64,000 nt of DNA from an uncultured virus (IMG/VR IMGVR_UViG_3300023371_004674) (lineage: Duplodnaviria; Heunggongvirae; Uroviricota; Caudoviricetes), in IMG/VR virus record IMGVR_UViG_3300023371_004674. The stretch is one strand, 5' to 3'. Positions 5,717 through 64,000 of the stretch are shown here, piece by piece. The notes under the pieces were generated by a model that saw nothing but the letters and a program-made list of their open reading frames with translations, searched no databases and was not told the DNA's origin. A program made the position numbers and the translations under genes. Position 1 is the stretch's first letter. Every line of letters begins with the position of its first letter.

Positions 5717-5731
5717 AGACGGTGCATCCTC

Positions 5732-7191: not shown

Positions 7192-7709
7192 TACTTTGCC
7201 ACCATTCTTTCGAACAGACTTTCATAGAGAGCCTTGTACGTATCTCTTTCTGCGGTGATCTTGGCAATTTCGATTGCCGTTTCAGGAGCTGGTGCCTTCT
7301 TGGGTTCTTCCTTCGGTGCAACTTTGGGAGCCGGTGCTGCGGATACCGCCTTTTCCTTCGGCTTTTCAAATTCAAGACCAAGGCTGATAGCGAGTGCCGC
7401 ATCCACCATTGTCATCTCGTAGGGAGTACAGGTAGCAACATATTCTCCGACTCTCTGAACTGATACCGAATTGATCTGTTCGCAGAGGGCGACCGATGCT
7501 CTCTGTGTGCTTCTGATGTCGATATGGGTAGGCAGGTCGTTCTTGGGCTGTGTAGTGAGGTAAACAACCTCGATGACATCGCTGAAGGCGTTGCACTTAT
7601 CGTTGCTTACCACGATAGCAGGTCTCCCTGATCTCTGTTCCGAACCGACCTCGTATCCACCCATCTTCTCTATGTAGAAAATCTTGCCTCTCTTGATTTC
7701 TTCGATCAT
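7191..7709 (-). CDS. PemK/MazF-family endoribonuclease-like protein with C-terminal coiled coil
   Basis: RGKIFY..GSEQRSGRPAIVVSND..LTT..ALCEQINSVS motifs. Confidence 0.85.
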   Translation of the reverse strand: MIEEIKRGKIFYIEKMGGYEVGSEQRSGRPAIVVSNDKCNAFSDVIEVVYLTTQPKNDLPTHIDIRSTQRASVALCEQINSVSVQRVGEYVATCTPYEMTMVDAALAISLGLEFEKPKEKAVSAAPAPKVAPKEEPKKAPAPETAIEIAKITAERDTYKALYESLFERMVAK

Positions 7710-28972: not shown

Positions 28973-29176
28973 CTATGCGTTCAAGCTGACGAAAGGAGAA
29001 CCTTGTCCCAATAGCTTCAGCTCATCTTCGGCTTTTCGGCGGTCGTCATCAAATTCTTTTTTGGTTTCTTCATCCACCGCACTCATCTCCGCTATGAACA
29101 ATGCCTGCCTGTTGATGATCTCGGCTTGCATCTTCACAACTTCGCAAAGGCGGTCGATTGTTTCGATGGCATTCAA
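28973..29176 (-). CDS. Small coiled-coil protein overlapping the RT 3' end
   Basis: GGAGGT RBS and TTG start; IETIDRLCEVVKMQAEII. Confidence 0.55.
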   Translation of the reverse strand: MNAIETIDRLCEVVKMQAEIINRQALFIAEMSAVDEETKKEFDDDRRKAEDELKLLGQGSPFVSLNA

Positions 29177-30386
29177 CTGTCTGTACCTCCGTTTTGGTTT
29201 CTTTTGGTTCAGGCACAACTACTTGGGATAGTCCAATGCCGTTTTGCTCCAGCGTTTTCACGTAGGAGCAGTAGATCCTGTTCAGCTCGGTGCAGAGCCC
29301 GTGGCTGTTACAGTGAATGAGGATGCCGTGATACGAAGCGGCTCTCCTCTTGAATTCATCCTTTGTCATCTCGCCTATGGATAACTGATAGCATATCACC
29401 TTGACTTTACGGATGATCTTCCGTGCGGTTGACTTCTTTAACTTTCTATGGGTAGCCCATATCTTGTAGCCTACAAAGTCGATACCGAGAGTTATCGGTC
29501 GAATAGCTGTCTTGTTATTCAAGCTGAGAGCGAGACATTCATTAAGGAATCGTTCGATGCAATCTTTCCATCGGTGCAGTTCCTCCTTGCTTTCCGATAG
29601 AATGATAACGTCGTCCATATACCGTATGTAGTGGCTGATTCCGAGGGTGTGCTTACAGAACTGGTCGAGCTGGTCGAGATAGATGTTCGCAAACATTTGC
29701 GATGTGAGGTTGCCGATAGGCATACCCGTATCATCGAGCCAATCTTCATACGGACAATCTTCCGGGCTGAAGCCAGCGGGAAGACCGAACTTCTGGTTAG
29801 GATTGTTGATAATCCTTTCCAGTAGCGTCATCATCTTCTCATCGTGAATACGTACACGCAGAATGTCAAGCAGGATCTCGTGATTGACACGATAGAAATA
29901 CTTACTGATGTCGAGCTTCAGATAATAGCATTTCTTGTCGGGGTTTTCGAGTTCCTTTCGGTGAGCTTGACGAAGCCAATACTGCAACTTGTCGGCAGCG
30001 GCGTGTGAGCCTTTGTCTTTTCTGCAAGCATACGAGTCTTCGATGAACTGTTTGTCATAGAACGGAAAAAGATACCGATATATGCTCCATTGAACGATAC
30101 GGTCACGAAACGGAATCGACATCACGAGCCGTAGCTTCGGTTCGTGAACGTAGAACATTCTGTATCTACCCATCTCATAGACCTGCTCGTTTAATTCAAA
30201 CAGAAGCAGATCCAGCCCCGTTTCCAGCTTATCTGAAAATTTGAGGATTTCAGGTCTGTATCGTTTACCTTTACGAGCCTCTCGATACGAGATTTCGAGG
30301 TCTTCGTAGGAACACATCTTGTCATATACATCGGTGAGGACAGACATACCCTCGACGTACTGTTCTATTTGGTATTCGTTTTCCAT
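29070..30386 (-). CDS. DGR reverse transcriptase
   Basis: GMPIGNLTSQ (DGR-type SQ), YIRYMDD, LKLDISKYF and GIDFVGY motifs; likely start MENEY at 30386. Confidence 0.97.
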   Translation of the reverse strand: MENEYQIEQYVEGMSVLTDVYDKMCSYEDLEISYREARKGKRYRPEILKFSDKLETGLDLLLFELNEQVYEMGRYRMFYVHEPKLRLVMSIPFRDRIVQWSIYRYLFPFYDKQFIEDSYACRKDKGSHAAADKLQYWLRQAHRKELENPDKKCYYLKLDISKYFYRVNHEILLDILRVRIHDEKMMTLLERIINNPNQKFGLPAGFSPEDCPYEDWLDDTGMPIGNLTSQMFANIYLDQLDQFCKHTLGISHYIRYMDDVIILSESKEELHRWKDCIERFLNECLALSLNNKTAIRPITLGIDFVGYKIWATHRKLKKSTARKIIRKVKVICYQLSIGEMTKDEFKRRAASYHGILIHCNSHGLCTELNRIYCSYVKTLEQNGIGLSQVVVPEPKETKTEVQTVECHRNNRPPLRSCEDASRDHQQAGIVHSGDECGG

Positions 30387-30537
30387 AAACCTTAAAAAAA
30401 GAATGAGCCGAGCGGGGCGTCTCCGTCTTCTCGGCAATTTACTCTTTCTCCTTGCGGAACGGCGGCGAGTCCCTTTGGGCCTGACACTTTTCGGTCTCCG
30501 TAGAGAGCCATTCGTATCGTAGGTATGCCAGACGCAG

Positions 30538-30653
30538 AGCGGAGCGGAAGCCGATGTTGTGATTCGTATTGGAACGGGCATTGTTGCCATTCAAGTTGAA
30601 GACACCGTTGTTGGAACTGTTGTTCCAGTTACCGCCACGATAGGCGAACCGCT
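30538..30653 (-). ncRNA. DGR template repeat (TR)
   Basis: Lies between avd and RT; in the target frame reads RFAYRGGNWNNSSNNGVFNLNGNNARSNTNHNIGFRSA (12 AAY codons, 29 adenines); matches VR1 and VR2. Confidence 0.97.
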
Positions 30654-30686
30654 AATATAAAATAGACTCGTCCCTATGAAAACGGC

Positions 30687-31160
30687 TTACTTGTTCAGGT
30701 GGTTCAAATAACCTCCGATCAATCTGCCGATCTCATCTAAATATTGACTGTTCCACACGTATTTCTTATGCAGGGAAAGAGGCGGAGAAACAGATACAGT
30801 GATGAGCTTTCCTTGCTCGTCATATACCTTGTTGCCGTTCTTATCTTTCTTTGGAACCTCCTGATCATAATAATCTTTGTCTGCGGCAATTCTTACGAGA
30901 TGCCGCAAAACCTCCAGTTCCTCATCCAACTCCTGCAATGTGGACTTCTTGTAATATTTCTTCTCGATTTTGACGACAAGTCGGAACATCGTCAGCATCG
31001 ACTGCCTTATTTCGCTTGCCAATTCCTTGTCTCGACCGGGAAATCTATCCACAATCTTCTTGCCGTATCTATACATATCGGCAATCCGCTCTTTGAGGAT
31101 AAACGCCTTTTGGTCGTCTCGACGGTTGGGGCTATTCATTTGGATTTCTTCGTTTTCCAT
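30687..31160 (-). CDS. avd: DGR accessory variability determinant
   Basis: bAvd-type helical motifs (RFP..K.LA..IR, KKSTLQELD.EL..LR, EIGRLIGG); lies between VR1 and TR. Confidence 0.9.
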   Translation of the reverse strand: MENEEIQMNSPNRRDDQKAFILKERIADMYRYGKKIVDRFPGRDKELASEIRQSMLTMFRLVVKIEKKYYKKSTLQELDEELEVLRHLVRIAADKDYYDQEVPKKDKNGNKVYDEQGKLITVSVSPPLSLHKKYVWNSQYLDEIGRLIGGYLNHLNK

Positions 31161-31185
31161 AGCATCTCCATAGCCTTAAAAGATA

Positions 31186-31205
31186 GGGCGGGCTACCGCC
31201 CACCC
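31186..31205 (-). promoter_or_regulatory. DGR target-recognition hairpin downstream of VR1
   Basis: Minus strand GGGTGGGC-GGTA-GCCCGCCC. Confidence 0.75.
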
Positions 31206-31227
31206 CATCAGTTTAACAGCGAACAGT

Positions 31228-32292
31228 TTACAGTTCTACAAAAGCGGTGCGGAAGCCGAAGTTGTGATGCGTATGGGAACGGGCATTGCTGCCAAGCAAG
31301 TTGAAGACACCGCCGTAGGAACCGCCGCTCCAGCTACCGCCACGAGAGGCGAACCGCTCTGCGGCACCGTTGTTCATATAGAAGTAGTCGCCTCCGTGAT
31401 TTCCGCTATCTGCGGGGAACAGAGCGAGAGCCTTCATAATCTCAGGGCAGGTAACTCCGTCCGCAAGTGCAAGAGCATTAAAGCTTGTTGACTTGTAGGC
31501 GTCTTCCTGCAATGTGAACTCGGTTGCAAGCGTGATTTTGCTGTTTGCATAATCCCACTTCAAGGTTCCTGCCGTGCCGGGATCTACGAGAGAACCGTCA
31601 GGCATAATCGCCTTCCAGAGAGTGCTGTCAACCGTCTGCGGATTGAGCTTGTTTGCGGCGTTGTTGTAAGGGATAATCTGGATTTCTCCAGCTACGGTTC
31701 TGTAACCGCCCATCCACTCGTAAACATTGCCGTTCAAATCCCACACACCGCTTGCATCGTTGTTATGAGCCCAAGACTTAGGACCGGAGCCCGTAGCAAC
31801 TCTTCCGTTGTAGAGCGTCCCATTGTCAATGTAGGTGTAGGTAACGATACCTTTCTCGTCAGGTCTCGAATGATCCTTGCCGTAGTTATTGTTACCTCTC
31901 GGCATAAAGCCGTTCTTTCTGCACTGAAGGGCAATCCAAGCCCATTCAGCGTTGGTTGCAATGTGCCAACCGTTGCCCTTGTTCTCGCAGTATCCTCTTG
32001 CAACATCGAAGTTGATGCCCGTTTTAGGATCCTGCAAGGGTAGCGAATAAGCTCTGTACAAGCCATCCGCACATCTGATTGCCACGTTCTGATATTTGGA
32101 ATACCAGAATGCGGCTTTTTCTGCATTATCTACCGAGAATGCGGGGTGCGTGTTCTCCGAACCGCCCGTGATAACATCGGCGATATTGCCTTTGTCAAAA
32201 CGAACCATAATGGAGGGCATACCCACATCGTCGTAGATGACTTTGTTGGTTTCGCCGCCCAAGAGCTGAACGGCAACTTCAAGATCTGTCAT
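31228..32292 (-). CDS. DGR target 1: Mtd-like C-type-lectin/FGE-sulfatase fold receptor-binding protein
   Basis: End of the tail module; DLNGNVYEW, RGGSW and GFR motifs; C-terminus is VR1. Confidence 0.93.
   Translation of the reverse strand: MTDLEVAVQLLGGETNKVIYDDVGMPSIMVRFDKGNIADVITGGSENTHPAFSVDNAEKAAFWYSKYQNVAIRCADGLYRAYSLPLQDPKTGINFDVARGYCENKGNGWHIATNAEWAWIALQCRKNGFMPRGNNNYGKDHSRPDEKGIVTYTYIDNGTLYNGRVATGSGPKSWAHNNDASGVWDLNGNVYEWMGGYRTVAGEIQIIPYNNAANKLNPQTVDSTLWKAIMPDGSLVDPGTAGTLKWDYANSKITLATEFTLQEDAYKSTSFNALALADGVTCPEIMKALALFPADSGNHGGDYFYMNNGAAERFASRGGSWSGGSYGGVFNLLGSNARSHTHHNFGFRTAFVEL
31243..31358 (-). repeat. DGR variable repeat VR1
   Basis: 116-nt ungapped match to the TR; 15 mismatches at TR adenines plus one non-A difference at the 3' (IMH) end. 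Confidence 0.97.
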
Positions 32293-51972: not shown

Positions 51973-52146
51973 TTATTCTTCGACGATCTCAAAATCTTCG
52001 GGATCAAACAGGTAGTCATCGCCCGTCTCATCGACGATGCGATACCAGCCGCTTTCCTCATCAACTTCGATTACGTCATATTCTTTGCCGTTAAGCAATT
52101 CGAGCGGATCATCTTCTCCGATAAATCTTACCTTCATAGCAGTCAT
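51973..52146 (-). CDS. Small acidic protein, candidate immunity/antitoxin
   Basis: ATGA-coupled to the portal stop; L.NGK.Y.V...GWYRIVDETGDDYLF.PEDF motif. Confidence 0.65.
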   Translation of the reverse strand: MTAMKVRFIGEDDPLELLNGKEYDVIEVDEESGWYRIVDETGDDYLFDPEDFEIVEE

Positions 52147-55100
52147 CCTTTCTTGAACTTTTTGATTTTCCACTTGGTCTGACCTACTCCTTCGCATTCA
52201 AACCAATGGATCTCTGCATTCTTTTCTGTACCGTCAGACAATTTAATCTTGCCGTTTCCGGTCGAATGCGTCCAATCTTCAGGCTTACCACCGTAGGTAT
52301 GAGCGAACTTATCAGCAAGGTCGAGCGGTTTCTTACCGCCCTTACCCGCAAAGACCTCGACATCTGTAATGTCTCCAGCCATAATCTTGGCTGAACCCTT
52401 GCTTCCGAGTCTGGCTTTTGTTTCGTCGGTGACTTTCATTGTGCCGTTGACGGTTTCAAACTGTGTCACCTTCGTTTTCTTTACGCCTTCCTGAGCAGGC
52501 TCATCTTCTTTGCCTTTATGCTCGCCCCATTTCATACCGGGAACGCCATAGTCTTCATTGGTGGTTTCCTTTGACTTTATTATATCCGAAAATGCGGATT
52601 TGTCAATAGGATTTTCAGAAATAAACGGAATTGTTGATGAATTATTTTCATCAGCGGAGTCATTCTTGTTCTCGCTTCTTGTATAAATCAGCCCGTACTC
52701 GTGAGCGTGGAGCTGCATATACATATCAGCTTCTCGAATCAAGTCATCTTTGGAAAGCGTTCCGTCTTTGTGCTTCTTTTCAAGCAGGTCGATATGAGAT
52801 GCGAGAGACTTGATCTGATAGTCGTCGCAATCCTTGGTTCTAACCAGCGAATACATCTCCGTTTTAGAGGTCATATACATCGCCTGTTCGCCTCTCGTGG
52901 CAAACGTCCTGATGTCAGAACCCGAAAACGAGCTTGCTTCGTGTCCGGGGTGGTTATGGAGCGTTGCGAAAGCCTTCTGTTCTCCGAGCGATACGCTCTC
53001 CTCATCACCTTCGTTTCTTGCTATCTCGCTTCCACTTTCGTCATAGGCAACGAGGATCTCTACATCCGAGTTTTTGATCTCTGCTATGTCTGCCAAAGCC
53101 CTTCTTTTGGATGACGAATCATCGACCGCTCCCTTGGCGACTTCGACCTTTTGAGCTGTAACCGCCTCGAAATGCTTGTCGATATGCTCATCGAGCGTAC
53201 CTTCGGATATTGCCTTGTTCACGTCACGAAAACTCATACCAGCTTCCGAGAAAAGGAACTCTGCCTTTTGGTCTTCGGACATTCCGTGAGCGTGTTCACG
53301 AACCGAAGCAGATATTGACGGAGCAGAGCCTCCTATTTGACCGGGGACTCCCTCGTGTCCGTGGTTTCCGCTTCCGGGACCGCCATCAGATTTCTCCGTG
53401 TGGTCGTCTCCTTTGAAGCGGAGCATATAAGCACCAAGATCTTCAACCCAATGCCACTCCATATCGTCATCTTTGCTGTCCGTTCTGAACAGAACCGCAT
53501 CGAGCAGTTTAAGACCGTCTGCAAAAGGCTGGAACAAAGCGTGTTCCATTTCCTTGATCTGTTCGAGATCGAGGAAGCGGATCTGCGTCATTTCGAGGTC
53601 TATGGACTTGGGTTCACCCTCAAATTCAGTGCAGAGGAAGATAACGGGCGTGATACCCGTGTCTGGTTCCTTCGGTCCGTAACCGAGCTGTACCATTTTC
53701 GTAGGGGTGATGCCGAACTCCTCGTATGCCTCACGCTTGGCGGCTTCTTCGGGAGTTTCTCCCTCCTCGATGTGACCGCCGGGACCGCAGAGCAAGCCGT
53801 AGCCAAAATCATTGTGCCGAGTGCCGCAGAGGATTTTGCCCTCCTTAGCCACAATAACGCCCACACCGCCCCTTTGAGGCTTGGGTGTGGTATCTTGTGA
53901 GTCGGCGTTGTTCTCGCCCTCTCGCTCTTTTTGTGCTTTTTCCTCATCGGTCATATCTTGGGGGAGCTTGGTAGCGGCAGGAGCCGTGTCGGACGAATTG
54001 CCTTCTTCTGTGAGAGGGTTCTCCGTACCGCTTTCTTCTCCTTCAGGAGCATTTGCTTCGGCTTCCTGTTCAAGCCTCTCCTCGATTGCCGCCATCAGCT
54101 CTTCCTCGTCGTACTGATCGAGAATGTTCTCAACATCGAACTGCTCATCACGAGCAAGACCGTTGCGGACTTCGGAAGGATCGAGAGCGCCCATATCCAC
54201 GTAGGTCTTGGCGGTTGCCGCATTCGTGGACTTGATGGTTGCTTTCTGCTGTTCAAGCTGAACCTGCTCGGACTCACTCATAGACCAAAGCGGGTTGAAC
54301 TTAACCTTAATGGGCGGAACTTCTGCAAGCTCTCCCGTTGCCACGCCAGCCTGAGCTATGATGGAGAACAGGTAGCGGAGGTTCTTCTTTACCATTCTAC
54401 GCTGAATACGCTCAACGTAGTTGTACCAGTTCTCCATAGACGTATCGTCCGTGGTGGAAAGACCGCCCGCTCCCGCACCGAACAAGATCGTTTGCGGAAT
54501 AGAAGAAATCGCTGACAGGAACGCACAGCTCTTGTCGATGATCTCTGACACGCCTGAGAATTGGAACTGCTTGAAATCGTAATCCTCGCCCTCGCTGTCA
54601 ATCGTGATGCTGTTGAGAAGCCCTCTCGCCATATCAATCACTTCAAGACGTTTGAGAACTGCGTCCTCACCGTCCGATGTCGAAAGAATGTCGGCGAGGT
54701 TCTTCATCTTGTAGATTGCCTGAACGGAGCGGTCGAGCATTTTCGGTCCGCTACCGTATGCCAACTCTGCATCACGGATTGCACGTTTGAGTCTTACGTA
54801 TTCGGGCATACCCCAGAACTGATACACGGAATTCGTGCATTTCTCAGGGAGAATGCCGTTCTGAAAGACCAGACATCTGCTTTCGTGTACGGTGAAGTTA
54901 CCGTACTTACTGAAAACAGAATAATATTCAGGCATACCAAGGCGACTGCCTCGTGTCCTGAATGGATCTTCGGGGTTGTAGGAGAACATACTGCTGTAAT
55001 CGGGCTGAATCAACGAACGGTCATAGATGCGGATGTCATCAATCGACTGAATGTTCTTCCAGTCGAGCGGTTCATCCACGCCTCTACCGTCATTTATCAT

Positions 55101-55556
55101 CATAACAGCAATAGCACCTCCGAAGAGGCGTCCCCATTTGAGAGATGTCATAAACATCTCATCGCCATCAAGCTCGTCGTATGCCTCACGGAAGAACGAC
55201 TGAATGTCGGGATCGGAGATCCCTTCGAGTTCGAAGCCGTGTTTGATGGCTTCTTCCGCAGGGCTGTCGATGATTTTTGAGAACAGACCGTTGCCCTCAT
55301 AAAACATCGAAAGAACCGTGTCATCCACGGCGGGTTCGGGTTGGAAGCGGTAGTGCTCGCTCGTATCCTTCGATGTGCCGTACCTATTCAAGACATTTAC
55401 ATATCCGTCTTCACGGAACTCTGCGTTCTGGGGAAGCGGACTGTTCGCTCTATACGGGCGTACCGCTCTGCCTGTCTGCTTTTGAATGATACGAGCGTAC
55501 CGCTCGATACTGTCAAGCCTTGCCGCCTTGTTTTCGTTTGTACTCAATTCATTCAC
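52143..55556 (-). CDS. Portal protein (DUF1073-like) fused to NUDIX, JAB/MPN-like and C-terminal toxin-like domains
   Basis: Follows TerL; GRLFGGA, VHESR, IPQTILFG and FNPLW portal motifs; Nudix box GGHIEEGETPEEAAKREAYEEFG; HNHP..FSGSD; AEIHWFE.EGVG. Confidence 0.9.
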   Translation of the reverse strand: MNELSTNENKAARLDSIERYARIIQKQTGRAVRPYRANSPLPQNAEFREDGYVNVLNRYGTSKDTSEHYRFQPEPAVDDTVLSMFYEGNGLFSKIIDSPAEEAIKHGFELEGISDPDIQSFFREAYDELDGDEMFMTSLKWGRLFGGAIAVMMINDGRGVDEPLDWKNIQSIDDIRIYDRSLIQPDYSSMFSYNPEDPFRTRGSRLGMPEYYSVFSKYGNFTVHESRCLVFQNGILPEKCTNSVYQFWGMPEYVRLKRAIRDAELAYGSGPKMLDRSVQAIYKMKNLADILSTSDGEDAVLKRLEVIDMARGLLNSITIDSEGEDYDFKQFQFSGVSEIIDKSCAFLSAISSIPQTILFGAGAGGLSTTDDTSMENWYNYVERIQRRMVKKNLRYLFSIIAQAGVATGELAEVPPIKVKFNPLWSMSESEQVQLEQQKATIKSTNAATAKTYVDMGALDPSEVRNGLARDEQFDVENILDQYDEEELMAAIEERLEQEAEANAPEGEESGTENPLTEEGNSSDTAPAATKLPQDMTDEEKAQKEREGENNADSQDTTPKPQRGGVGVIVAKEGKILCGTRHNDFGYGLLCGPGGHIEEGETPEEAAKREAYEEFGITPTKMVQLGYGPKEPDTGITPVIFLCTEFEGEPKSIDLEMTQIRFLDLEQIKEMEHALFQPFADGLKLLDAVLFRTDSKDDDMEWHWVEDLGAYMLRFKGDDHTEKSDGGPGSGNHGHEGVPGQIGGSAPSISASVREHAHGMSEDQKAEFLFSEAGMSFRDVNKAISEGTLDEHIDKHFEAVTAQKVEVAKGAVDDSSSKRRALADIAEIKNSDVEILVAYDESGSEIARNEGDEESVSLGEQKAFATLHNHPGHEASSFSGSDIRTFATRGEQAMYMTSKTEMYSLVRTKDCDDYQIKSLASHIDLLEKKHKDGTLSKDDLIREADMYMQLHAHEYGLIYTRSENKNDSADENNSSTIPFISENPIDKSAFSDIIKSKETTNEDYGVPGMKWGEHKGKEDEPAQEGVKKTKVTQFETVNGTMKVTDETKARLGSKGSAKIMAGDITDVEVFAGKGGKKPLDLADKFAHTYGGKPEDWTHSTGNGKIKLSDGTEKNAEIHWFECEGVGQTKWKIKKFKKG
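52579..52606 (-). promoter_or_regulatory. Promoter inside the portal ORF
   Basis: CTATTGACA-16-TATAAT-AAAGT, same family as the early promoters; translated as IDKSAFSDIIK. Confidence 0.7.
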
Positions 55557-55572: not shown

Positions 55573-56978
55573 TCAAATCAAGTTTCTGGGATTGAATGTA
55601 TTCTTGGTTTCAAGCTCGGCAAATGCGTTTGCGGCGGCATCGACCATATCCTTGAATTTACCATCAGGGAAATTTTCCAACTGGTGCAGGAACGGTTCGT
55701 TCCAATCACCATAGACAATATCAAAATTGCCTACTTGCCATTGAGCCGCCATCGGCTCGGCTCTTGCTTCCTTGCTTCCTGTCTCGGCTACCGTTACCAC
55801 GTTAAAGCCAGCGAGGAACTTGACATAGGATTCTGCCTGCTCCTTACCCGCTTGACCGGGATCCTTCGGAAGCCTTACTTTCACTCTTTGGTAACGGGCT
55901 TTGTCAGCCTGTGCCGTGAGCTTTATGGTTTGGCGGACATCCGATGCGGACATCTGCTTATTGATAACATCAGCAACTACATATCGACCATTCTTTCTCT
56001 TACCCATCAGGACGCCTGCGGTGAATGCAGGATCGCCTGAATCGACGGTCTTTTCTGTTGCCGCCAAGTCCCAGCATCGCACCCATTCGATAACATCGAG
56101 AGGGACGGATTGCAGAATGTCGCCGACCTGTGTTCTCTTGAAGAACAGACCAGCCGCCGCCTTGATCTTCCAGTTACCGTGTAGCAGTCGCTCACGCTCG
56201 ATCTGCGAGAGGGCTTTCAGGTTGGCGAGATACTGAGGGTTGACCTTCAGGAGCTCTTGGTTATCTTGGAGCTTCGACATTATAAAAGTGACCGAGCGGG
56301 GCTCGGCTCTTTCTTCGTCTGTCACAAGGTTGAACCTCTCCCAAAGCTCTTGCTTGGTGTTCGCCCAATGTAAGATCTCGTCACGTCTGATGAACCAGCG
56401 TATCTTGCCGCTTCGTTCTGGGATAGGATAGCCTGTTTCTTGGTCTATCCACCATTCGATGAACTTTGCCACCCAACTGTCTGCGTCAGGGTTACAGGTC
56501 GCTCGAACAAACGGAGTAACACCACAGGTGGAACGGTTACGAGATAGCATATAAAAAAAGACCTTCTCCGAAAAGTGCGTCAACTCATCGAAGCCGATCT
56601 CACAAATCTGTGAACCCTGCCACTTGTTCAATTCATCTTCTCGCTCGATGTGGGCGAACTTTACAGAGGAAATCGTTCTGCCTTTCTCATCCGTAAATTT
56701 CCATCGACCGAGGGAAAGCTGGGGCTGAGCCCCTTTTATACCGGCATAGATCTTTGACGATTCATCCCAAAGACCGCCTTGCGAGAATATCTGGTTGAAA
56801 TTCCTACGGAAAATCGTACAGCCAAAGCCCTTGACGTTTTTATAGCGGAGAGGGGATAACAGGAGTCCGTATGACTTACCGCCTCCCGCCGCTCCTCCGT
56901 AAATGCAAATCTGAGCAGGTGTTGCCACTACATAAACTGCTCTTGCGGTCCCTTTTGGGGTTTAAGAACAGTTGCCAT
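55573..56978 (-). CDS. terL: Terminase large subunit (first 16 codons separated by a 5-nt insertion; main ORF 55573..56928)
   Basis: Walker A GGAAGGGKS, Walker B IGFDELTHF, ATCNP, nuclease WDLA and DMVDA. Confidence 0.92.
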
Positions 56979-56991
56979 AGCACATCACCTC

Positions 56992-57657
56992 CTATTCGTC
57001 ACCGTCAGGAGTTTCTTCCGTATCGCCCTCGGCGGTTGTGGATTTTTCAGGCTGCTCTTGGCAACTTTCTTCGCTTGCGATTTGAGGCATATAGATCACA
57101 ACATCATCGTGATTGTCCTCGTCATCGAGTGCGATTGAGATGTCAGCGGTTGGAGCTCCACGCCCAAGTGCCGCAATCTTCGCTTCAAGCTCCAGCTCTC
57201 TGCGACGGTCGGATGCAAGGCTCTCTCTTTCCTTGCGTTCCTCTTCAGGATCGTAGCCTGCAATTTTGAGCAGTGCGAAATAGGTATCCAAGTCAGCCTT
57301 TTGCATTGCCGCTGTAAGCATTCTTGCGTGGAGAGCCATCATATTGGTACACTCATCATCAGGAAGACCGAGCTCTCGGAGATTATCTTTCAGTTTGCCT
57401 TTGGCGGCGAGCTGGAGAAGATACCTTGCGGCATCACGAGCATCTCTCTGTCGCTGAGCTTTCTCTCTGCGAACCTCTCCCGATTTGACTCCGCCCTTGC
57501 TTCCTTTTGCCTTGGCGGTCTCGGTATCGGTGATCGTGTTCTCCCTGAATTCCTTACTTCGTTTGTGCCGTTTTTTCGGTACAACTTCCGAGGTCTCCGA
57601 AACATCTGCTTCGTTTCCGCTTTGTAAGCCCAAATTTTCGGTATTCTGTTCGCTCAA
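56992..57657 (-). CDS. Terminase small subunit (probable)
   Basis: Immediately upstream of terL; KGGVKSGEVRR motif. Confidence 0.65.
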   Translation of the reverse strand: MSEQNTENLGLQSGNEADVSETSEVVPKKRHKRSKEFRENTITDTETAKAKGSKGGVKSGEVRREKAQRQRDARDAARYLLQLAAKGKLKDNLRELGLPDDECTNMMALHARMLTAAMQKADLDTYFALLKIAGYDPEEERKERESLASDRRRELELEAKIAALGRGAPTADISIALDDEDNHDDVVIYMPQIASEESCQEQPEKSTTAEGDTEETPDGDE

Positions 57658-57822: not shown

Positions 57823-58050
57823 CTACGCATACAATTTACACACCGTTTGCACCGCCTTTTCGACCGCCTCGCTGGTGTTGACTCCGATTTGACGGTAGAA
57901 ATCAGGATAGAGCATACACTCATATCCACGTTTCATCGTGTCGGAGTCTTCCTTACTGATCCCAAGACGGAATCCTTTGGCGATACGGAGGGCAGATTTG
58001 AAATCACCCTCCGCTACCATTCTTCTTACGGTGTCACTCTTGCGTTCCAT
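57823..58050 (-). CDS. Hypothetical protein
   Basis: GGAGG RBS; ALRIAK.FRLG..YPDFYRQIG. Confidence 0.6.
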   Translation of the reverse strand: MERKSDTVRRMVAEGDFKSALRIAKGFRLGISKEDSDTMKRGYECMLYPDFYRQIGVNTSEAVEKAVQTVCKLYA

Positions 58051-58984
58051 ATTTCTCCTCCGGTCTGCGTTTACCGTCGTCATAAGGCAAGCGGTAATGC
58101 TTCGGATTGTGTTTCAGGAGGCAAGCGTTGATGTCTCTGTTCCAAGTGCAATCATCAAACAGGTTCTCTTCGAGCGGTGTGAGGAGTCGTTGGTCGTTCT
58201 CGATTGCGTGAACCGCATCTCTGCCGAGCGTGTACTTGCCACGGTAGGTATGCCAGTTGTACGCCCAATCAGGAAAGAAGCCCTTGATCTTCGTACACTC
58301 GTCGAGCGGTTTGATAATCGGGATGTCTTCGGGATTGAGCAGGAAATCGAAGTCCATCTTCTCCCAGCCGAGCGTTCTCTCAATGGGATCTTTGCAGGTC
58401 CACATCAAGCAGATCGCTTTTGCGGCGAATACCGTTTCCGTAGAGGGAGTCGATACTCGGTCATTGGAGATTTGCAATGCCGCAAATTCCGATTCGAGAT
58501 GCTGGTAATACATTCTCGCCATATCGTTCAAGAGCTGCCACAGATATTTGCGGTTCTTCTTGAACAGAGCCATAGCGAAATGTCCCGCTTTCACGACATC
58601 TTTCTGTCGGATAGCGGTGAACAGATGCTTTCCCAATTCCTGTTTGTCTCCGTCGATAGGGACATCGTTGTACATCAGGTTGCAGACGAAGTAATCCGCA
58701 TCCCTGTTCTTTTTCGCCAAGCAGATAAGGGCGAGGGCTTTTTCCATAGCGTCCTCAGTTCCAATATCACACAAGGCGAGGATTTCTTTTGTTATCACCC
58801 CGAAGCAGTCTTCAGCGGAAATAACAAGGAGCCGCTTCCGCAAGTATCCGAGATACTCCGGCAACAGCTCCCAAACGCAGTAACCTGCTAATTCGTAATC
58901 TCCTTTTCGGATGGCGTTCTGCATTGCAGAAGTCACCTCCCAAAAATTTCTTCCCGTTCTCGTAGGTTTCATTTCGTAAGCCAT
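58034..58984 (-). CDS. Protein resembling the RarA/MgsA C-terminal helical region (no ATPase domain)
   Basis: SAMQNAIRKGD..LRKRLLVISAEDC, repeated helical unit, AYNWHT.RG; start MAYEM overlaps the HNH stop. Confidence 0.55.
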   Translation of the reverse strand: MAYEMKPTRTGRNFWEVTSAMQNAIRKGDYELAGYCVWELLPEYLGYLRKRLLVISAEDCFGVITKEILALCDIGTEDAMEKALALICLAKKNRDADYFVCNLMYNDVPIDGDKQELGKHLFTAIRQKDVVKAGHFAMALFKKNRKYLWQLLNDMARMYYQHLESEFAALQISNDRVSTPSTETVFAAKAICLMWTCKDPIERTLGWEKMDFDFLLNPEDIPIIKPLDECTKIKGFFPDWAYNWHTYRGKYTLGRDAVHAIENDQRLLTPLEENLFDDCTWNRDINACLLKHNPKHYRLPYDDGKRRPEEKYGTQE

Positions 58985-59532
58985 TAAACCACCGCCTTTC
59001 TCCAAGTGTAACCACCGGCACTTTTTCTTTCTCCGTTGAGGCATCTGACAATGTGCGAACCATACGTTTTGCACCGTCTCGCTGCTTCGTTAATAGATTC
59101 AAACTCAACCTCTTCGTTCGTTTCGACATTTGTTCCGATAACAGGAATTTTCATTTTGTCTATCCGACCGATGTGTTCTTTGATTGCCGGTTCGTACAAT
59201 CCATTTTGCATAGCGTGTGCTACATTCGCTTGCCTTGTGGACCATTCGAGATTGCTTGCTTCATTGTTTCTCTTGTTTCCATCACGATGGTTTACTTCGG
59301 GAAGGTTCAAGGGGTTAGGCACGAACGCCTCCGCAACCAAACGATGAACCTTTGCAGTTTTTTTCATCGGCTTGTTGTAGAGGTGTACCATTAAATACCC
59401 TTTTTCGTTCGGATGAGGCGTAAGCCGTTTTCCTTTGTGACCGCCGGGAGAATCGTAGGATTCTACATTCCCTTTGTCGCTCACTCGGTATCGACCTTCC
59501 CATCCGGTGATGTCTTTCCATTTCTCTTCCAT
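58984..59532 (-). CDS. NUMOD4-HNH homing endonuclease
   Basis: WKDI.GWEGRYRVS (NUMOD4), VHRLVAEAF, VNHRDGNKRNN..NLEW, and NUMOD1-like F.SI.EAAR..AGGYTW. Confidence 0.92.
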   Translation of the reverse strand: MEEKWKDITGWEGRYRVSDKGNVESYDSPGGHKGKRLTPHPNEKGYLMVHLYNKPMKKTAKVHRLVAEAFVPNPLNLPEVNHRDGNKRNNEASNLEWSTRQANVAHAMQNGLYEPAIKEHIGRIDKMKIPVIGTNVETNEEVEFESINEAARRCKTYGSHIVRCLNGERKSAGGYTWRKAVV

Positions 59533-59580
59533 TTTACCGCCCTTTCTTGTATATAGTAGCCAAACCTTGGGTTGATTTGG

Positions 59581-59650
59581 CTTTACTTTATTATACAATA
59601 TTGCGGCGTAAAGTCAATAGATTTGCGGATATTTTTGAAATATTTTTTCG
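59581..59650 (-). promoter_or_regulatory. Repeated promoter, copy 6 (drives the HNH gene)
   Basis: TTGACT (59617-59612)-16-TATAAT (59595-59590)-AAAGTAAAG. Confidence 0.8.
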
Positions 59651-59653
59651 TAA

Positions 59654-60376
59654 TCAACGCTTTACGTTGATGTGAGGCACATTCGTCTTCAAATTGTAAG
59701 AGAAGTATTTGCCCCACTTGGCTTTCATCAGGTTGATGCTGGCAATCTGGTCGCCACGCTTCTTTCCTGAAGCTCCGCCCTCGTTCGTGTCGGTCAAGCC
59801 TTTCGAACAGAAGTATTTCGGTTTGAGAATGATTCTGTTGTAGATCAGCTCCTGAAGCACGAGGTCGAGGTCGTAGTTGTATTCGAGCTCCTTGACGCAC
59901 TTCGCTTTGAATGTCTGGCGGTTTACCCAACGGACTGCTCCTGCACATCCTTTGAATGCGAACTCACAATCGTAGTTCCACGGACGGATGGTTGCATCGG
60001 TAGCACCGAATCCTATGCCGAGGTCGGACATAAGCTGTCCTACTCTTTCAAGCTCGCTCGTGATGAGTTCGGGATCCGTAATGGAAACCGTCTCGAACAT
60101 TCTATAATAGAAATGGTGGATGTCATCGTCGAGAATGGCGATAACATCTTCGGGAGCGTTGTCGATGAGCCATTGGTTTACCTCTGTCAATCCGCAGATG
60201 AGGTGGTCGGGTACGCCCTGAACCTTGATGTGCTCGAATTCTTTGAGAGCCTCACAGTATTCGTCGTATTCGCTCTCACGGACGATGTACGTTCCGTATT
60301 CGAGGAAATGATGAGCGTAGCAGGTTCCGGCTCTCTTGTAACTGGGTATATAGATACCAAACGTGGGTTCACTCAT
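59654..60376 (-). CDS. GREB1/TET-associated (TAGT)-like GT-A glycosyltransferase
   Basis: IYIPSYKRA, Y.VRESE..EY, ILDDDI, DLD..LQ, N.GG and KWGKY motifs. Confidence 0.75.
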   Translation of the reverse strand: MSEPTFGIYIPSYKRAGTCYAHHFLEYGTYIVRESEYDEYCEALKEFEHIKVQGVPDHLICGLTEVNQWLIDNAPEDVIAILDDDIHHFYYRMFETVSITDPELITSELERVGQLMSDLGIGFGATDATIRPWNYDCEFAFKGCAGAVRWVNRQTFKAKCVKELEYNYDLDLVLQELIYNRIILKPKYFCSKGLTDTNEGGASGKKRGDQIASINLMKAKWGKYFSYNLKTNVPHINVKR

Positions 60377-61167
60377 TTGGTTTCCTCCTTCCTGTCGTAT
60401 GCGTTTCGTTTCCATTCTTGCGGAAGAACGAAACCGCAGTTCATAACGTAGTCGATGACGCACATATTGATAGCCGACCGTTTGCCTACCTGCGGATAGA
60501 CAACCGGTTCGTAATCTGAATAAATGAGGTCAATGCCGTGTGCTCGGTAGTCTTCCTCGATATGATAATCCTTGGCGGCAACTCCGCTGTAATATGCGGT
60601 TGCTCCGAGGTATTCGCACATTTCTATAATGCGAGGATCTCTGCGTTTTGTCAAAGGCAGGTCGGACGAGGTAAGAAACAATACTCTGTCATTCAACCCG
60701 AACCTGTCGCAAAAGGCAAGGATGCAAGTCTTGTTGAAGAAAGCAAGATCGCCTGCTTTGGTAGCTGTGCGGAGAAGCGACTCGATGAACGGGTATGCTT
60801 CCTCGTAGTGAGCCGCCTTGCTGTATTCCTGACGGAGCGTTTTCAGCATTTTCTCTACAACGAATTCGTCGGCGGCAAGCTCCAACTCATTCAGGTTGAC
60901 AGGGTGATAATGGATCGGGAGCGTGAACTTCATCGGTCCGTTGCCTGTCAATATCTGATTGTAGTTGTGTCTGCCGCTTTTACTGTATTGCACGTTATCC
61001 GAGAACACGAAAACGTCGCTTTGGAAAATCTTATAGAAATATCCCATCCAAGGGAAGAAATCGGGCTGATGCGATGCGAGTATGAGCTTGCCGCCGTTGT
61101 CCTTTTTGATGCTCTGTTCGAGAGCTTCTTTCAGGGTGAGTTCTTTTTGAACGGTTTCGGTCATCAT
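60373..61167 (-). CDS. WbqC-like protein (putative glycyl/acyl transferase)
   Basis: HQPDFFPWMGYFYKI..SDVFVF.DNVQY, Y.KA..Y and Y.SG..AKDY motifs. Confidence 0.88.
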   Translation of the reverse strand: MMTETVQKELTLKEALEQSIKKDNGGKLILASHQPDFFPWMGYFYKIFQSDVFVFSDNVQYSKSGRHNYNQILTGNGPMKFTLPIHYHPVNLNELELAADEFVVEKMLKTLRQEYSKAAHYEEAYPFIESLLRTATKAGDLAFFNKTCILAFCDRFGLNDRVLFLTSSDLPLTKRRDPRIIEMCEYLGATAYYSGVAAKDYHIEEDYRAHGIDLIYSDYEPVVYPQVGKRSAINMCVIDYVMNCGFVLPQEWKRNAYDRKEETK

Positions 61168-61847
61168 ACGTCAACCTTTCTGAAAACGCACTCGAAAGCC
61201 TCTGCGTATTGAGAACCGCACTGTGCTCCACGGAGAACGGGCAAGGATCTCAACGCCTCCTCTGAACGAGGGTGAGGAACGGGACGGATGACATTCTCGT
61301 ACATACCGAGTGCGGCGATCTTTGCGTCAACCGCTTGGGAAGATACGGGAATGAACGTATTTGGCTGGAAAACCTTGATAGCGGGGTTTAACGCCCAATC
61401 GGTAGAGGATTGAACCTCCATAAGATAAAGTGCCTTGATGGGCTTGATTTGCTCTCTACCACGTTGCCACAGGCGGAATGCTTCCATACAGGTAGCCGCC
61501 GTCCAGTAATGGTCGGTGTTGATGTCTCCGGGGGATTGAGTGAAAATCGTGTCGGGCAAGAACTCCCTGATGACTGCTTCGATTTTCTGTACCATTTCTC
61601 TGTGGTCTGCGTTGTGGAAATTGCTGTCGAGATATTCGCACCCGTAATAGTGCTTGATGCCGAGGATCTTATGCGATTCGAGCAGATCTTTCACGATCTT
61701 GGTTCTGTCATCTTCGTACCGAGTGGTATCGCAGGTGTTGAGAACCATAACGCCGATTTCGTCTCCACGTTTTGCCGCATCATAGATAAATGCACCCGCT
61801 CCGAGAACCTCGTCGTCTGGGTGAGCTACTACAAAGAGATGTCTCAT
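61164..61847 (-). CDS. PIG-L/LmbE family deacetylase
   Basis: AHPDDEVLGAG, D.NTDH and YAEAF motifs. Confidence 0.9.
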   Translation of the reverse strand: MRHLFVVAHPDDEVLGAGAFIYDAAKRGDEIGVMVLNTCDTTRYEDDRTKIVKDLLESHKILGIKHYYGCEYLDSNFHNADHREMVQKIEAVIREFLPDTIFTQSPGDINTDHYWTAATCMEAFRLWQRGREQIKPIKALYLMEVQSSTDWALNPAIKVFQPNTFIPVSSQAVDAKIAALGMYENVIRPVPHPRSEEALRSLPVLRGAQCGSQYAEAFECVFRKVDV

Positions 61848-62821
61848 TACTTGACACCTCCCTTGAACACGCTTTCGATGAGGTGGAGAACATCGTCCTC
61901 GCTCATACGCTCCGCCTTATCCGAGGTGTAGGGTACGTTCAGCCCTGTGCCGATGGTCTTCTTTCCAACCACCATATACTCGCCTTTGAGGATTGCGTTG
62001 TCCGCCTCCTCCTCCGAGAGCAGAGCCTCGTGCATTTTCTCTCCCTTTCTCGCCCCGATGATCTCTACGGGGTAGTCCTTCGGGAGATTGAGGTATCTGC
62101 ACACGGCGTTTGCGAGGTCGCCCGTTGTGCAGGCCTTGGACTGTTTTACGAGCAGGTCGCCGTTCCGTCCCACGATGAATGCTTTCTCGACCAAATCGGT
62201 GGCTTCATCGACGGTCATCATAAAGCGTGTCATATCGGGATCGGTAATGGTAATCGGGAGTCCGTTCTGTACCTGCTCTATAAAGAGCGGTACAGCACTG
62301 CCTCTCGATGCTACGAGGTTTCCGAATCTCGTAACGCAGATCTCTGTGCGGTTTTGGTCTGCCGCCCTTTGCAGAGCGAGCTTTTCCATATATGCTTTCG
62401 TCATACCCATAGCGGACGTGGGGTAAACTGCCTTGTCGGTTGATAAACAGACAATCTTCTTTACCTTCTTCTGAACCGCCGAGGTTATGACGTTGTTGCT
62501 TCCTTCGATGTTCGTTCTTACAGCTTCCATAGGGAATGCTTCGCAAGAGGGGACTTGCTTCATAGCGGCGGCGTGGAATACGTAATCAACGCCGTACATC
62601 GCCACGTCTATCGAATGCTTATCCCTGACATCTCCGAGATAGAATTTGATGTTATCGTACTGACGGTAACGCTGTGCCATATCGTACTGCTTTTTCTCGT
62701 CTCGGCTGAAGATGCGAACCTCCGCCGCACCCTGTTCCAAGCATTTGTCGAGAAAGGCGTTGCCGAACGTGCCTGTTCCGCCGGTGATGAGGATAACCGA
62801 GTTTGCAATTCCTACGCTCAT
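61847..62821 (-). CDS. UDP-sugar 4,6-dehydratase (CapD/FnlA-type SDR)
   Basis: ITGGTGTFG, SRDEKKQ, HAAAMKQVPSCE, LSTDKAVYP, TRFGNL.ASRGS and GEKMHE motifs. Confidence 0.93.
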   Translation of the reverse strand: MSVGIANSVILITGGTGTFGNAFLDKCLEQGAAEVRIFSRDEKKQYDMAQRYRQYDNIKFYLGDVRDKHSIDVAMYGVDYVFHAAAMKQVPSCEAFPMEAVRTNIEGSNNVITSAVQKKVKKIVCLSTDKAVYPTSAMGMTKAYMEKLALQRAADQNRTEICVTRFGNLVASRGSAVPLFIEQVQNGLPITITDPDMTRFMMTVDEATDLVEKAFIVGRNGDLLVKQSKACTTGDLANAVCRYLNLPKDYPVEIIGARKGEKMHEALLSEEEADNAILKGEYMVVGKKTIGTGLNVPYTSDKAERMSEDDVLHLIESVFKGGVK

Positions 62822-64000
62822 ACTTCTCTCACCGCCTTTACAATAGCATCAACGATGTATCTCTGCTGTTCCTCTGTCAGCTCCGTGTGATAGGGGATAG
62901 TGAGCAGATTCTTGAACATCTCGTATGCGTTCGGATAATCGGCGATGTCGAAGCCGATCTCCTTATATGCGGTCATCATCGGGAGGGGCTTGTAATGGAC
63001 GTTGCAAGGAACGCCAACCTCTCTCAATGCGTGATATACCTTATCCCTGCCGCTTTCCGCTCCTTCCGGGAGGTTGAGGCGTACAGGGTACAAGTGCATA
63101 GCGGATTGATAATCCTCTCCGAAATGCTTGATGAGGGGAGTGGCTTCTGCGACATTGGCGAACAGAGCATCGAAGCGTTCCGTAACTTCTCTGCGTTTGC
63201 TCTCGATCTCATCAAGCCTGTCAAGCTGAGCTACGCCCATCGCCGCATCAATGTTCGTCATAATGCTGTTATAACCGAACAGGGCGATGTCGTATTCCCA
63301 ACCCTTGCTTTTATCCCTCGATGTCTGCCCGTGATCTCCGAGCAGGCGGAGGGTTTCTTCCATCTTCTCATTATCGAAATGAGGGAAGTCCTTCCAAACG
63401 AGAGCACCGCCCTCTCCGCCCGTCGTGATGTTTTTCAGCACGTGGAACGAGAAGCAGGTGAAGTCCGCCCATTCTCCGCTCTTGGCGTTGTAGGACGAAG
63501 CACCAAAACTGTGAGCTGCATCGGCAACCACGGCGACTCTGCCGATTGCTTTTTGCAGCTCATTTGAGGGTGTGAATATATCTCGTTTGGAGGCTACGGC
63601 GGACAGGAGACTATAATAATCACACAGCTTACCGCCAATGTCAACGGGCATAACCGCCTTGGTTTTCTCCGTGATCGCCGCCGCAACCTTTTCGTAATCC
63701 ATCTCGAACGTCTTGCCGTCGAGGTCCACAAATACGATTGTTGCACCTACATTGCGGATGACCTCCGCTGTGGCTGAGTAGGTATAAGGTGTCGTAATCA
63801 CCTCATCGCCGGGACCGATACCGAGAACACGGAGAGCCATTTCCATTGCCGCCGTGCAACTGTCGAATGCAACCGCTCTGCTTGCGTTGCAGATCTTGGC
63901 GATTTTCTGTTCAAACTCACGGACTATGGGACCGTTCGTGAGCCATCTTGTCTCGGCAGCCTTGCCGATGTTATCTACTTCCGCTTTGGTAATGTCGGGA
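62818..64000 (-). CDS. DegT/DnrJ/EryC1/StrS sugar aminotransferase (5' end outside the window)
   Basis: DAAHSFG and FSFHVLKNITTGGEGG PLP motifs; frame stays open to the window edge. Confidence 0.93.
   Translation of the reverse strand, partial: PDITKAEVDNIGKAAETRWLTNGPIVREFEQKIAKICNASRAVAFDSCTAAMEMALRVLGIGPGDEVITTPYTYSATAEVIRNVGATIVFVDLDGKTFEMDYEKVAAAITEKTKAVMPVDIGGKLCDYYSLLSAVASKRDIFTPSNELQKAIGRVAVVADAAHSFGASSYNAKSGEWADFTCFSFHVLKNITTGGEGGALVWKDFPHFDNEKMEETLRLLGDHGQTSRDKSKGWEYDIALFGYNSIMTNIDAAMGVAQLDRLDEIESKRREVTERFDALFANVAEATPLIKHFGEDYQSAMHLYPVRLNLPEGAESGRDKVYHALREVGVPCNVHYKPLPMMTAYKEIGFDIADYPNAYEMFKNLLTIPYHTELTEEQQRYIVDAIVKAVREV

Follow-up and report, generated by a model that had tools for sequence, protein, structure and literature searches.

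The DNA analysed here is a stretch of 64,000 nucleotides (the window) from IMG/VR record IMGVR_UViG_3300023371_004674, an uncultured virus of the Caudoviricetes. The window comes from a 231-kb contig that belongs to a genome of 2.1 Mb rated 95% complete, and the element on it is a temperate prophage of a gut bacterium. A cassette of sugar-making, sugar-transferring and sugar-tailoring enzymes lies next to the terminase genes of this prophage. All cassette genes are located on the minus strand, in the order ParB-like protein, PseC-like aminotransferase, CapE/FnlA-like dehydratase, PIG-L deacetylase, WbqC-family protein, GT-A glycosyltransferase, HNH endonuclease, RarA-C-like protein and terminase. 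The junctions from the ParB-like gene through the glycosyltransferase gene are ATGA or one-base overlaps, and the same applies between the HNH gene and the RarA-C-like gene. Translationally coupled genes had been described at this place in a first-pass annotation made from the letters of the window; each gene named there was confirmed with Pfam, PHROGs or NCBIfam, and the overlaps are real.

Enzymes and partner proteins of the cassette

The glycosyltransferase gene (59654..60376, minus strand) starts at 60376 and not at the GTG of the long open reading frame (ORF), which corrects the first reading. Its product is a GT-A glycosyltransferase with a DDD motif, scored by Pfam as a distant TAGT member (E 0.0032). 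The match to TAGT (PF20691) reached about 18 bits, below the gathering score of 27.5, and covered residues 9-94 only. A word-based search recovered 261 relatives. All 33 relatives that were aligned matched TAGT at E<=0.01 (best 1.8e-12), with D85 and D86 invariant and the DDD motif kept among them. The protein also matched phrog_842 (E 2.7e-8); tblastn against 50,697 GenBank phage records gave no match at E<=1e-5. An AlphaFold2 (AF2) model of pLDDT 88 matched generic GT-A enzymes only in the Protein Data Bank (PDB), at a template modelling (TM) score of about 0.55. Against BFVD, TAGT-domain proteins ranked at the top (TM 0.72-0.82, E down to 6e-15), and the beta-glucosyl-HMC-alpha-glucosyltransferase of the T-even-like Klebsiella phage PKO111 was matched at TM 0.76. 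Profile and whole fold thus bear out the TAGT-like label of the first-pass annotation, and the enzyme, as modelled, is a distant, genuine, whole-length relative of phage DNA-sugar transferases that belongs to TAGT at the family level.

The ParB-like gene (64016-64654, minus strand) is located just outside the window in the same operon, encodes 212 amino acids (aa) and overlaps the start of the aminotransferase gene by 8 bases. The first-pass annotation had named a ParB-like gene among those to be sought beyond position 64000. The encoded protein matched the PHROGs families of 'ParB-like partition protein' phrog_620 (E 1.7e-20), phrog_723 and phrog_8071, and also the ParB-type N-terminus of a methyltransferase family in PHROGs. 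Comparison by hhalign with 23 chromosomal ParB/Noc proteins from this genome and 20 relatives gave Prob 56% and E 1.1e-4, with the NPRK and GGNQR motifs aligned to the ParB box motifs. The family profile found nothing among PDB sequences, and a single-sequence search returned chance matches only. The evidence is mixed, since Pfam barely detects ParB_N in this family, but the assignment as ParB-like was considered settled because of the PHROGs and hhalign results.

The RarA-C-like gene (58034..58984, minus strand) encodes a protein of 316 aa that matched phrog_16866 (E 7.6e-26) and had no Pfam match. A profile built from 27 members matched the PDB entries 2qw6 (E 6e-4), 2r9g, 3ctd, 8g28 and 3bge (E to 0.018), which supports the earlier label through RarA/MgsA-type C-domains; RarA itself (3pvs) was reached at E 1.8. 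The protein has no AAA+ domain, and the C-terminal domain alone of RarA/MgsA is recognisable. At E<=1e-3 its family comprised 2065 representatives, of which 645 were left at 1e-10 and 122 at 1e-30. The 150 best relatives were all 81-425 aa long, with no enzyme fusion among these. Invariant residues are E58, D59, C60, D95, C101, H245, T246 and G249. A search of the ESM Atlas made for the cassette returned family-internal neighbours only. A three-chain prediction that paired the glycosyltransferase and the RarA-C-like protein with the ParB-like protein scored 0.01 against a mark of 0.32; it was run without controls and speaks neither for nor against binding.

The PIG-L gene (61164..61847, minus strand) encodes a PIG-L/LmbE-family zinc deacetylase of BshB-like type (Pfam PIG-L E 4.7e-19). 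Its best NCBIfam match was BshB1 (E 3.7e-15, 56 bits, below the cut-off of 182.5), and the AHPDDE motif is retained among its relatives. The adjacent WbqC-family gene (60373..61167, minus strand; Pfam WbqC E 8.9e-53) is predicted to encode an adenylate-forming amino-acid/carboxylate-amine ligase. The WbqC profile found nothing better than E 0.09 among PDB sequences, and NCBIfam also gave no match. The AF2 model (pLDDT 94) had one clear Foldseek match, which was BshC (4wbd, E 2.2e-3). VIA-align, a method independent of Foldseek, placed BshC first as well (Z 13.7, rmsd 3.5 Å, 215 of 234 residues), followed by class I lysyl-tRNA synthetase (LysRS, Z 11.4) and then by GluRS, TyrRS, CysRS, MshC and PanC (pantothenate synthetase). 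On this model WbqC is predicted to be an ATP-using amino-acid or carboxylate ligase that acts on an amine. The ligase reading is fitted by the BshB-like partner, by replacement of WbqC by an ATP-grasp ligase in some loci and by an acetyltransferase paralleling MshD in some variants. WbqC had been listed as a proposed glycyltransferase in the first-pass annotation; from the BshC fold and the ATP-grasp substitution it is best read as an amino-acid/carboxylate ligase. Whatever its target, a family without tested function thereby gains a concrete, model-based structural assignment.

The aminotransferase gene (62818..64000, minus strand) extends 23 bases beyond the window, with its likely ATG at 64023. 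Its product is a DegT/PseC-like sugar aminotransferase dependent on pyridoxal phosphate (PLP; Pfam DegT_DnrJ_EryC1 E 3.2e-93). The best NCBIfam equivalog was PseC with 286 bits, below the cut-off of 423.5, and the closest solved chain was 6ewj (E 1.9e-103), an entry that we regard as a pneumococcal enzyme in the 2-acetamido-4-amino-2,4,6-trideoxygalactose pathway. The dehydratase gene (61847..62821, minus strand) encodes a short, soluble 4,6-dehydratase of uridine diphosphate N-acetylglucosamine (UDP-GlcNAc) of the inverting CapE/FnlA/PseB type (Pfam Polysacc_synt_2 E 1.9e-95). NCBIfam scores were 349 bits for FnlA (cut-off 730) and 275 bits for PseB (cut-off 408), both below the cut-offs. Among PDB sequences the best matches were 4j2o (UDP-GlcNAc 4,6-dehydratase/5-epimerase, E 2.5e-96), CapE 3vvb (E 1.4e-92) and FlaA1/PseB 2gn4 (E 1.8e-57). 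From these similarities the product of the pair should be UDP-2-acetamido-4-amino-2,4,6-trideoxyhexose. The stereochemistry of the phage sugar is not fixed by this assignment because the pair scores below the equivalog cut-offs.

Prophage setting and conservation

Outside the cassette, the contig has the gene order of a prophage. Beyond position 64000 it carries a phage replication and late-regulation module with a serine recombinase at the end. The upstream order is a large serine recombinase beside the host gene queA, an Xre-type repressor, RecT, a DnaC-like loader, RusA and SSB, continued by DUF5131, a DUF1492 late regulator, RtcB and a HAD_SAK_2 domain protein, and then the cassette. Downstream of the cassette, the terminase is followed by a portal-NUDIX fusion and by genes for head and contractile tail; a diversity-generating retroelement and a holin come next, then an accessory region in which two DNA methyltransferases are encoded. 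No near-identical DNA was found among GenBank phages. Contigs of two RNA libraries covered 27 of 30 and 13 of 30 bins of the stretch; such libraries may hold DNA, and expression is not claimed from this coverage.

None of the 17 proteins encoded at about 55573-68367 has a transmembrane-like segment (Kyte-Doolittle 19-residue maximum 1.36), and the cassette proteins are, as judged from their hydropathy, all soluble. No flippase, polymerase, initiating transferase or membrane protein was found at the cassette. The earlier statement that no surface-polysaccharide locus is visible here holds, with phage replication and packaging modules on the flanks as further evidence. A host capsule locus was ruled out by the phage modules beyond position 64000 together with the lack of membrane-like proteins.

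Related cassettes were collected from IMG/VR (80 loci) and from species-representative bacterial genomes (24 loci), resulting in 104 loci that form 43 clusters at 90% glycosyltransferase identity. Conservation was counted in the 70 loci with at least 4.5 kb on each side, which represent 30 of the clusters. The glycosyltransferase was present in 70/70 of these full-context loci, as were the ParB-like gene and the RarA-C-like gene (both 30/30 clusters). PIG-L was found in 68 loci (29/30 clusters) and WbqC in 64 (25/30 clusters). The pair of DegT aminotransferase and dehydratase occurred in 25 loci (10/30 clusters), and HNH in four (1/30 clusters). A terL gene was located within 6 kb in 65 loci (27/30 clusters); the cassette was directly upstream of terL in 65 of the 70, and the median distance from glycosyltransferase to terL was 2.1 kb. 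The triad of glycosyltransferase, ParB-like and RarA-C-like protein is the constant core of the cassette, a designation that was chosen because of its presence in 70/70 loci as opposed to the varying sugar-making and tailoring enzymes. The amino-deoxysugar pathway proposed in the first-pass annotation accordingly stands as far as the pair and its predicted product are concerned, but it is an accessory part and not the core.

The carriers are prophages of gut Oscillospiraceae, Lachnospiraceae, Ruminococcus, Treponema and Bacteroidales, mostly of gut Clostridia. WbqC was missing from six full-context loci (L025, L029, L034, L127, L131 and L132), and an ATP-grasp ligase was found at its place in all four that were checked (L025, L029, L034 and L132). 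Other variants have a PglD-like acetyltransferase (L030, L043, L049 and L079) or a GFO/IDH/MocA oxidoreductase and a DegT-hexapeptide fusion (L051). The Bacteroidales variant is represented by the cultured Parabacteroides faecalis AGMB00274 (L132, 2821-10531), with the order UDP-galactopyranose mutase (GLF), GNAT, ParB-like protein, ATP-grasp ligase, TAGT-like glycosyltransferase, PLP-dependent decarboxylase of the Orn/DAP/Arg type, RarA-C-like protein and terminase.

Proposed mechanism and target

The cassette is read as a late-expressed cytoplasmic glyco-modification system that would decorate the phage's own DNA shortly before packaging, and a probability of about 0.5 is given to this reading. 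Beyond the observed gene content, operon structure and conservation, we infer the following mechanism, target and chemistry. UDP-GlcNAc would be the donor; in this phage it would first be turned into UDP-2-acetamido-4-amino-2,4,6-trideoxyhexose by the dehydratase and the aminotransferase. The TAGT-type glycosyltransferase would move the N-acetylhexosamine (HexNAc) from the UDP-sugar to the target. The BshB-like PIG-L enzyme would then strip the 2-N-acetyl group from the attached sugar, and the BshC-like WbqC enzyme would use ATP to join an amino acid or other carboxylate to a free amine. Phage thymine dioxygenases have ParB activators, and in analogy to these the ParB-like protein, possibly together with the RarA-C-like protein, may open access to double-stranded DNA (dsDNA). 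Restriction enzymes and other nucleases would be blocked by the resulting adduct, which would be bulky and cationic or zwitterionic.

This core of HexNAc addition, deacetylation and aminoacylation is read as bacillithiol-like chemistry because of its conservation and the superposition on BshC. To our knowledge, the PIG-L relatives of known substrate (BshB, MshB and PIG-L) use GlcNAc glycosides and not UDP-GlcNAc, and deacetylation was placed after sugar transfer because of this. By analogy with bacillithiol and mycothiol synthesis, the PIG-L and WbqC steps more likely follow the transfer than act on the nucleoside-diphosphate sugar. Both pathways (BshA/BshB/BshC and MshA/MshB/MshC/MshD) have the same order of GlcNAc transfer, deacetylation by a PIG-L/LmbE enzyme and aminoacylation by an enzyme of class-I-synthetase fold, and MshD is paralleled by the added acetyltransferase of some cassette variants. 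The differences are that their transferase is of the GT-B type (GT4) with malate or inositol phosphate as acceptor, whereas that of the cassette is GT-A/TAGT-like and its acceptor probably a polymer; that WbqC has half the size of BshC; and that the BshB1 score lies far under the cut-off.

DNA as the target is supported by the operon overlaps, the position close to terL, the invariant ParB-like and RarA-C-like partners, the kinship to TAGT and the solubility of the enzymes. In the available text of PMC8256090, phage glycosyltransferases beside TET place GlcNAc on 5-hydroxymethylcytosine. According to the available text of PMC13229309, the genes that most often adjoin phage 5mYOX genes are those for glycosyltransferases (31%), ParBs (27%), terminases (19%) and endonucleases (17%); it also describes a short ParB homologue that activates one thymine dioxygenase on dsDNA.

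Analogous gene sets were found in the cultured Stenotrophomonas phages DLP3 and DLP5, Vibrio phage VH2_2019 and Arthrobacter phage DanielleIgnace, whose hosts belong to three other phyla. These phages have PIG-L, a WbqC-like protein and/or a sugar aminotransferase, a glycosyltransferase and a ParB-like protein side by side, and the sets are located among genes of DNA metabolism and replication. They are unlike the cassette in having larger glycosyltransferases of other families (annotated Gtf1 or BshA-like), and their proteins are 21-34% similar to those of the window. DLP3 DNA was resistant to 15/15 restriction enzymes according to the available text of PMC7326821. Nucleoside chemistry was not reported for any of the four in the literature covered.

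Several results weigh against a DNA target, above all the search for an enzyme that would provide a base handle. Tet_JBP (PF12851) gave no match at E<=1 in the genome (95% complete), where a very divergent enzyme could escape detection, and was found in 0/5 related phage records (94-100% complete). The ThyA family (PF00303) gave no match in the genome at E<=0.01 and was found in 0/5 of these records. ThyX (PF02511) was likewise without a match in the genome at E<=0.01; it was above the cut-off in 1/5 records. The genes for TET/JBP or a hydroxymethylase that the first-pass annotation had thought worth seeking beyond the window were therefore found neither in the genome nor in the five records. 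The DNA target is put conditionally here because no TET/JBP, ThyA-type or conserved ThyX gene for making a hydroxyl handle was found in them. Further points are that the glycosyltransferase's own TAGT match is below the gathering score and limited to the N-terminal half, that Pfam barely detects ParB_N in the ParB-like family (2/25 relatives, best E 0.026), and that the resistance of DLP3 is without assigned cause and its glycosyltransferase of a different fold class. Finally, GREB1, a eukaryotic TAGT relative, is reported to be a protein O-GlcNAc transferase in the available text of PMC7968844, which equally favours a protein target.

A ThyX gene is located directly upstream of the cassette in two loci (L025, 4626-5360; L043, 6151-6888), and weak ThyX-like matches (E 7e-5 to 8e-4) that may be divergent flavin enzymes occurred in 3/5 complete related phages. 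ThyX was rejected as handle enzyme or core part on account of its absence from this genome and its single above-cut-off match in the related records. As a separate observation, no ThyA or ThyX match was found in the host genome (95% complete); the gene may lie in the missing part, or the host may depend on thymidine salvage.

The serious rival, although unlikely in our estimate, is glycosylation of a phage protein (capsid, tail, packaging protein or one of the cassette's own conserved partners) with an aminoacylated amino sugar. Its purpose would be stability, host recognition, or protection of the particle against antibodies or receptors. In giant viruses and mycobacteriophages, virion proteins are glycosylated via the viruses' own sugar pathways. 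The location of the cassette as the first part of the late structural operon and the solubility of all enzymes agree with such a target, which would also require no base-handle enzyme. On the other hand, the closest kin of the glycosyltransferase by sequence and by fold are phage TAGT proteins together with the type of the T-even DNA diglucosyl transferase. Both invariant partners, ParB-N-like and RarA-C-like, are of families tied to DNA, and the PIG-L/WbqC/glycosyltransferase/ParB set of the cultured phages is located among replication and not structural genes.

The remaining readings are weaker. It is improbable that the cassette makes a soluble small molecule, either a glycoside resembling bacillithiol or mycothiol or a nucleotide sugar in modified form, to serve as redox buffer, signal or inhibitor. 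Glycosyltransferase, PIG-L and BshC-like ligase, with the acetyltransferase of L030, L043, L049 and L079, do mirror the thiol-cofactor pathways step by step, but the transferase is GT-A/TAGT-like and BshA and MshA are GT-B. PIG-L and WbqC are moreover dispensable in Bacteroidales variants and the ParB-like and RarA-C-like proteins never, and a metabolite pathway gives no reason for these partners or for the linkage to the terminase.

Modification of RNA, in which a sugar and then an amino acid would be placed on a tRNA nucleoside (as in glycosylated or glutamylated queuosine) as a guard against anticodon nucleases, has a low probability. WbqC has the catalytic fold of class I aminoacyl-tRNA synthetases and matched the glutamyl-queuosine tRNA-Asp synthetase at Z 6.3, and genes of RNA repair, for the HAD_SAK_2 protein (66253-66741) and RtcB (69958-71259), are located a few kb upstream. 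However, RtcB joins the cassette in a minority of loci (only L003, L005, L016, L030-L033 and L035 of the 80 from IMG/VR), BshC, which is no RNA enzyme, is by far the best match of WbqC, and this reading accounts neither for the ParB-like partner nor for the constant position in front of the terminase. Lysogenic conversion, by which the prophage would alter a surface polysaccharide, teichoic acid or flagellin glycan of its host, is very improbable: the phage is temperate, and dehydratase/aminotransferase pairs and WbqC were first described from O-antigen and capsule loci, as their family names indicate, but flippase, polymerase, initiating transferase and membrane proteins are lacking, the genes are in a late operon coupled to packaging and away from the attachment site, and the glycosyltransferase is outside the surface-polysaccharide families.

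Within the reading of a DNA target, a more specific route is conceivable but doubtful. The triad might sugar dsDNA without a TET/JBP or ThyA-type enzyme, either by direct glycosylation of a canonical base or through a new handle activity of the RarA-C-like or ParB-like protein, and rebuilding of bacillithiol type on the polymer would then give an aminoacyl-amino-sugar base. If true, this would be a new route of DNA hypermodification and the first BshB/BshC-like chemistry on nucleic acid.

Hypermodifications of phage DNA decide the escape from restriction, CRISPR and type IV systems, and they are a source of useful enzymes. Glycosyl DNA modifications start, in the available text of the literature cited here, from a hydroxyl provided by a TET/JBP dioxygenase or a ThyA homologue. 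The cassette is widespread (104 loci, 43 clusters), yet neither homologue was found with it. A DNA target would mean a new way of sugar attachment and aminoacyl-amino-sugar bases made by bacillithiol-like steps on a polymer; a protein target would make the cassette a new type of glycosylation system in phages, one in which ParB-like and RarA-like partners take part. Cultured carriers exist, so that the question of the target is testable.

Known systems and minor features of the locus

Clusters built around 5mYOX (TET/JBP) dioxygenases have been described by Burke (2021, PMC8256090), Pyle (2023, 10.1101/2023.12.21.572611) and O'Toole (2026, PMC13229309). As given in the available texts, they act after replication, occur with or without a C5-methyltransferase, and have GT-A/TAGT glycosyltransferases and often ParB. 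The cassette shares with them a TAGT-type GT-A enzyme, a short ParB homologue in which no DNA-binding domain is obvious, a location close to terminase and endonucleases, a UDP-HexNAc donor and variable sugar-tailoring genes. It thus has the ParB homologue and glycosyltransferase near the terminase by which 5mYOX-ParB-GT clusters are recognised. It differs from them in having neither 5mYOX (as also in 5/5 related complete phage records) nor a C5-methyltransferase, and in adding an invariant RarA-C-like partner, a PIG-L deacetylase and a BshC-like ligase. PIG-L deacetylase and BshC-like ligase are not mentioned in the searched main texts on 5mYOX-type clusters. No literature was found in which WbqC, PIG-L or BshC-like enzymes are connected with DNA modification in phages; this search did not extend to the supplements of PMC13229309 and the Pyle preprint, which may list such neighbours. 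Post-replicative clusters for sugar hypermodification with TAGT-type transferases and ParB are thus already in print. No paper describing the dioxygenase-less cassette with RarA-C-like partner and BshB/BshC-like tailoring was found in the same search, which left these supplements outside.

The beta-glucosyl-HMC-alpha-glucosyltransferase of the T-even phages T2 and T6, a TAGT member, is of the same fold family as the cassette enzyme and modifies DNA once this has been replicated. The available text of PMC13390438 attributes the second glucose on DNA to TAGT in T6-like phages. T-even phages make hydroxymethyl-dCMP before replication by a ThyA homologue and use UDP-glucose as donor, and neither feature is present in this phage. 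For the sugar-making pair, the PseB/PseC, CapE/FnlA and PglF/PglE pathways are the closest counterparts, since phage dehydratase and aminotransferase are close to their solved members. The likeness is one of family-level membership only (Polysacc_synt_2, DegT), with the phage pair under the equivalog cut-offs of PseB/PseC and FnlA, and the enzymes that follow in those pathways (PseH/G/I, CapF/G and PglD) are absent from the phage.

The HNH gene (58984..59598, minus strand) between glycosyltransferase and RarA-C-like gene encodes a free-standing homing-type endonuclease (Pfam NUMOD4, HNH_3 and I-HmuI NUMOD-like). A contig from an RNA library (run X19), otherwise 97-99% identical, is without HNH and has position 58873 joined to 59560, with 146 other letters in place of 686 bases. 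The HNH gene is a polymorphic insertion, and this allele agrees with its being mobile.

The region between cassette and portal holds three further genes. A conserved ORF of 86 aa (57823..58083, minus strand) matched phrog_18237 over its whole length (E 3.6e-26), and ORFs of 76-91 aa are located at the same place in L025, L028, L030, L036, L043, L049, L051, L056 and L079; it is a possible small terminase subunit or DNA-binding protein. The 221-aa protein (56992..57657, minus strand; no Pfam match, phrog_2412 E 6.3e-7) had been called terS in the first-pass annotation. Its tblastn matches fall within TerL-matching ORFs of 590-675 aa (L034, L036, L056, L070, L079 and L028), which makes it homologous to the N-terminal extension of the long TerL proteins of relatives. 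The terminase large subunit of the window (55573..56928, minus strand) matched Terminase_6N (E 1.2e-20), Terminase_6C (E 6e-14) and phrog_979 (E 6.4e-150, profile positions 163-607 of 642). Because the 221-aa protein matches the N-terminal part of TerL and the TerL of the window aligns only from profile position 163, the supposed terS may be a split-off N-terminal domain of TerL.

The accessory region carries genes for a D12-class N6-adenine methyltransferase, an MT-A70 methyltransferase and a PemK/MazF-like toxin (4955-7709, minus strand). The diversity-generating retroelement (29070-32292, minus strand) comprises an RVT_1 reverse transcriptase, bAvd and a target of the FGE-sulfatase/C-lectin type, and is located beside the tail-fibre region. 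The portal gene (52143-55556, minus strand) encodes 1137 aa, with Phage_portal_3 (E 2.9e-67), a NUDIX domain (E 1.2e-16) and a long C-terminal region; an action of the fused NUDIX domain on nucleotide sugars is conceivable in principle.

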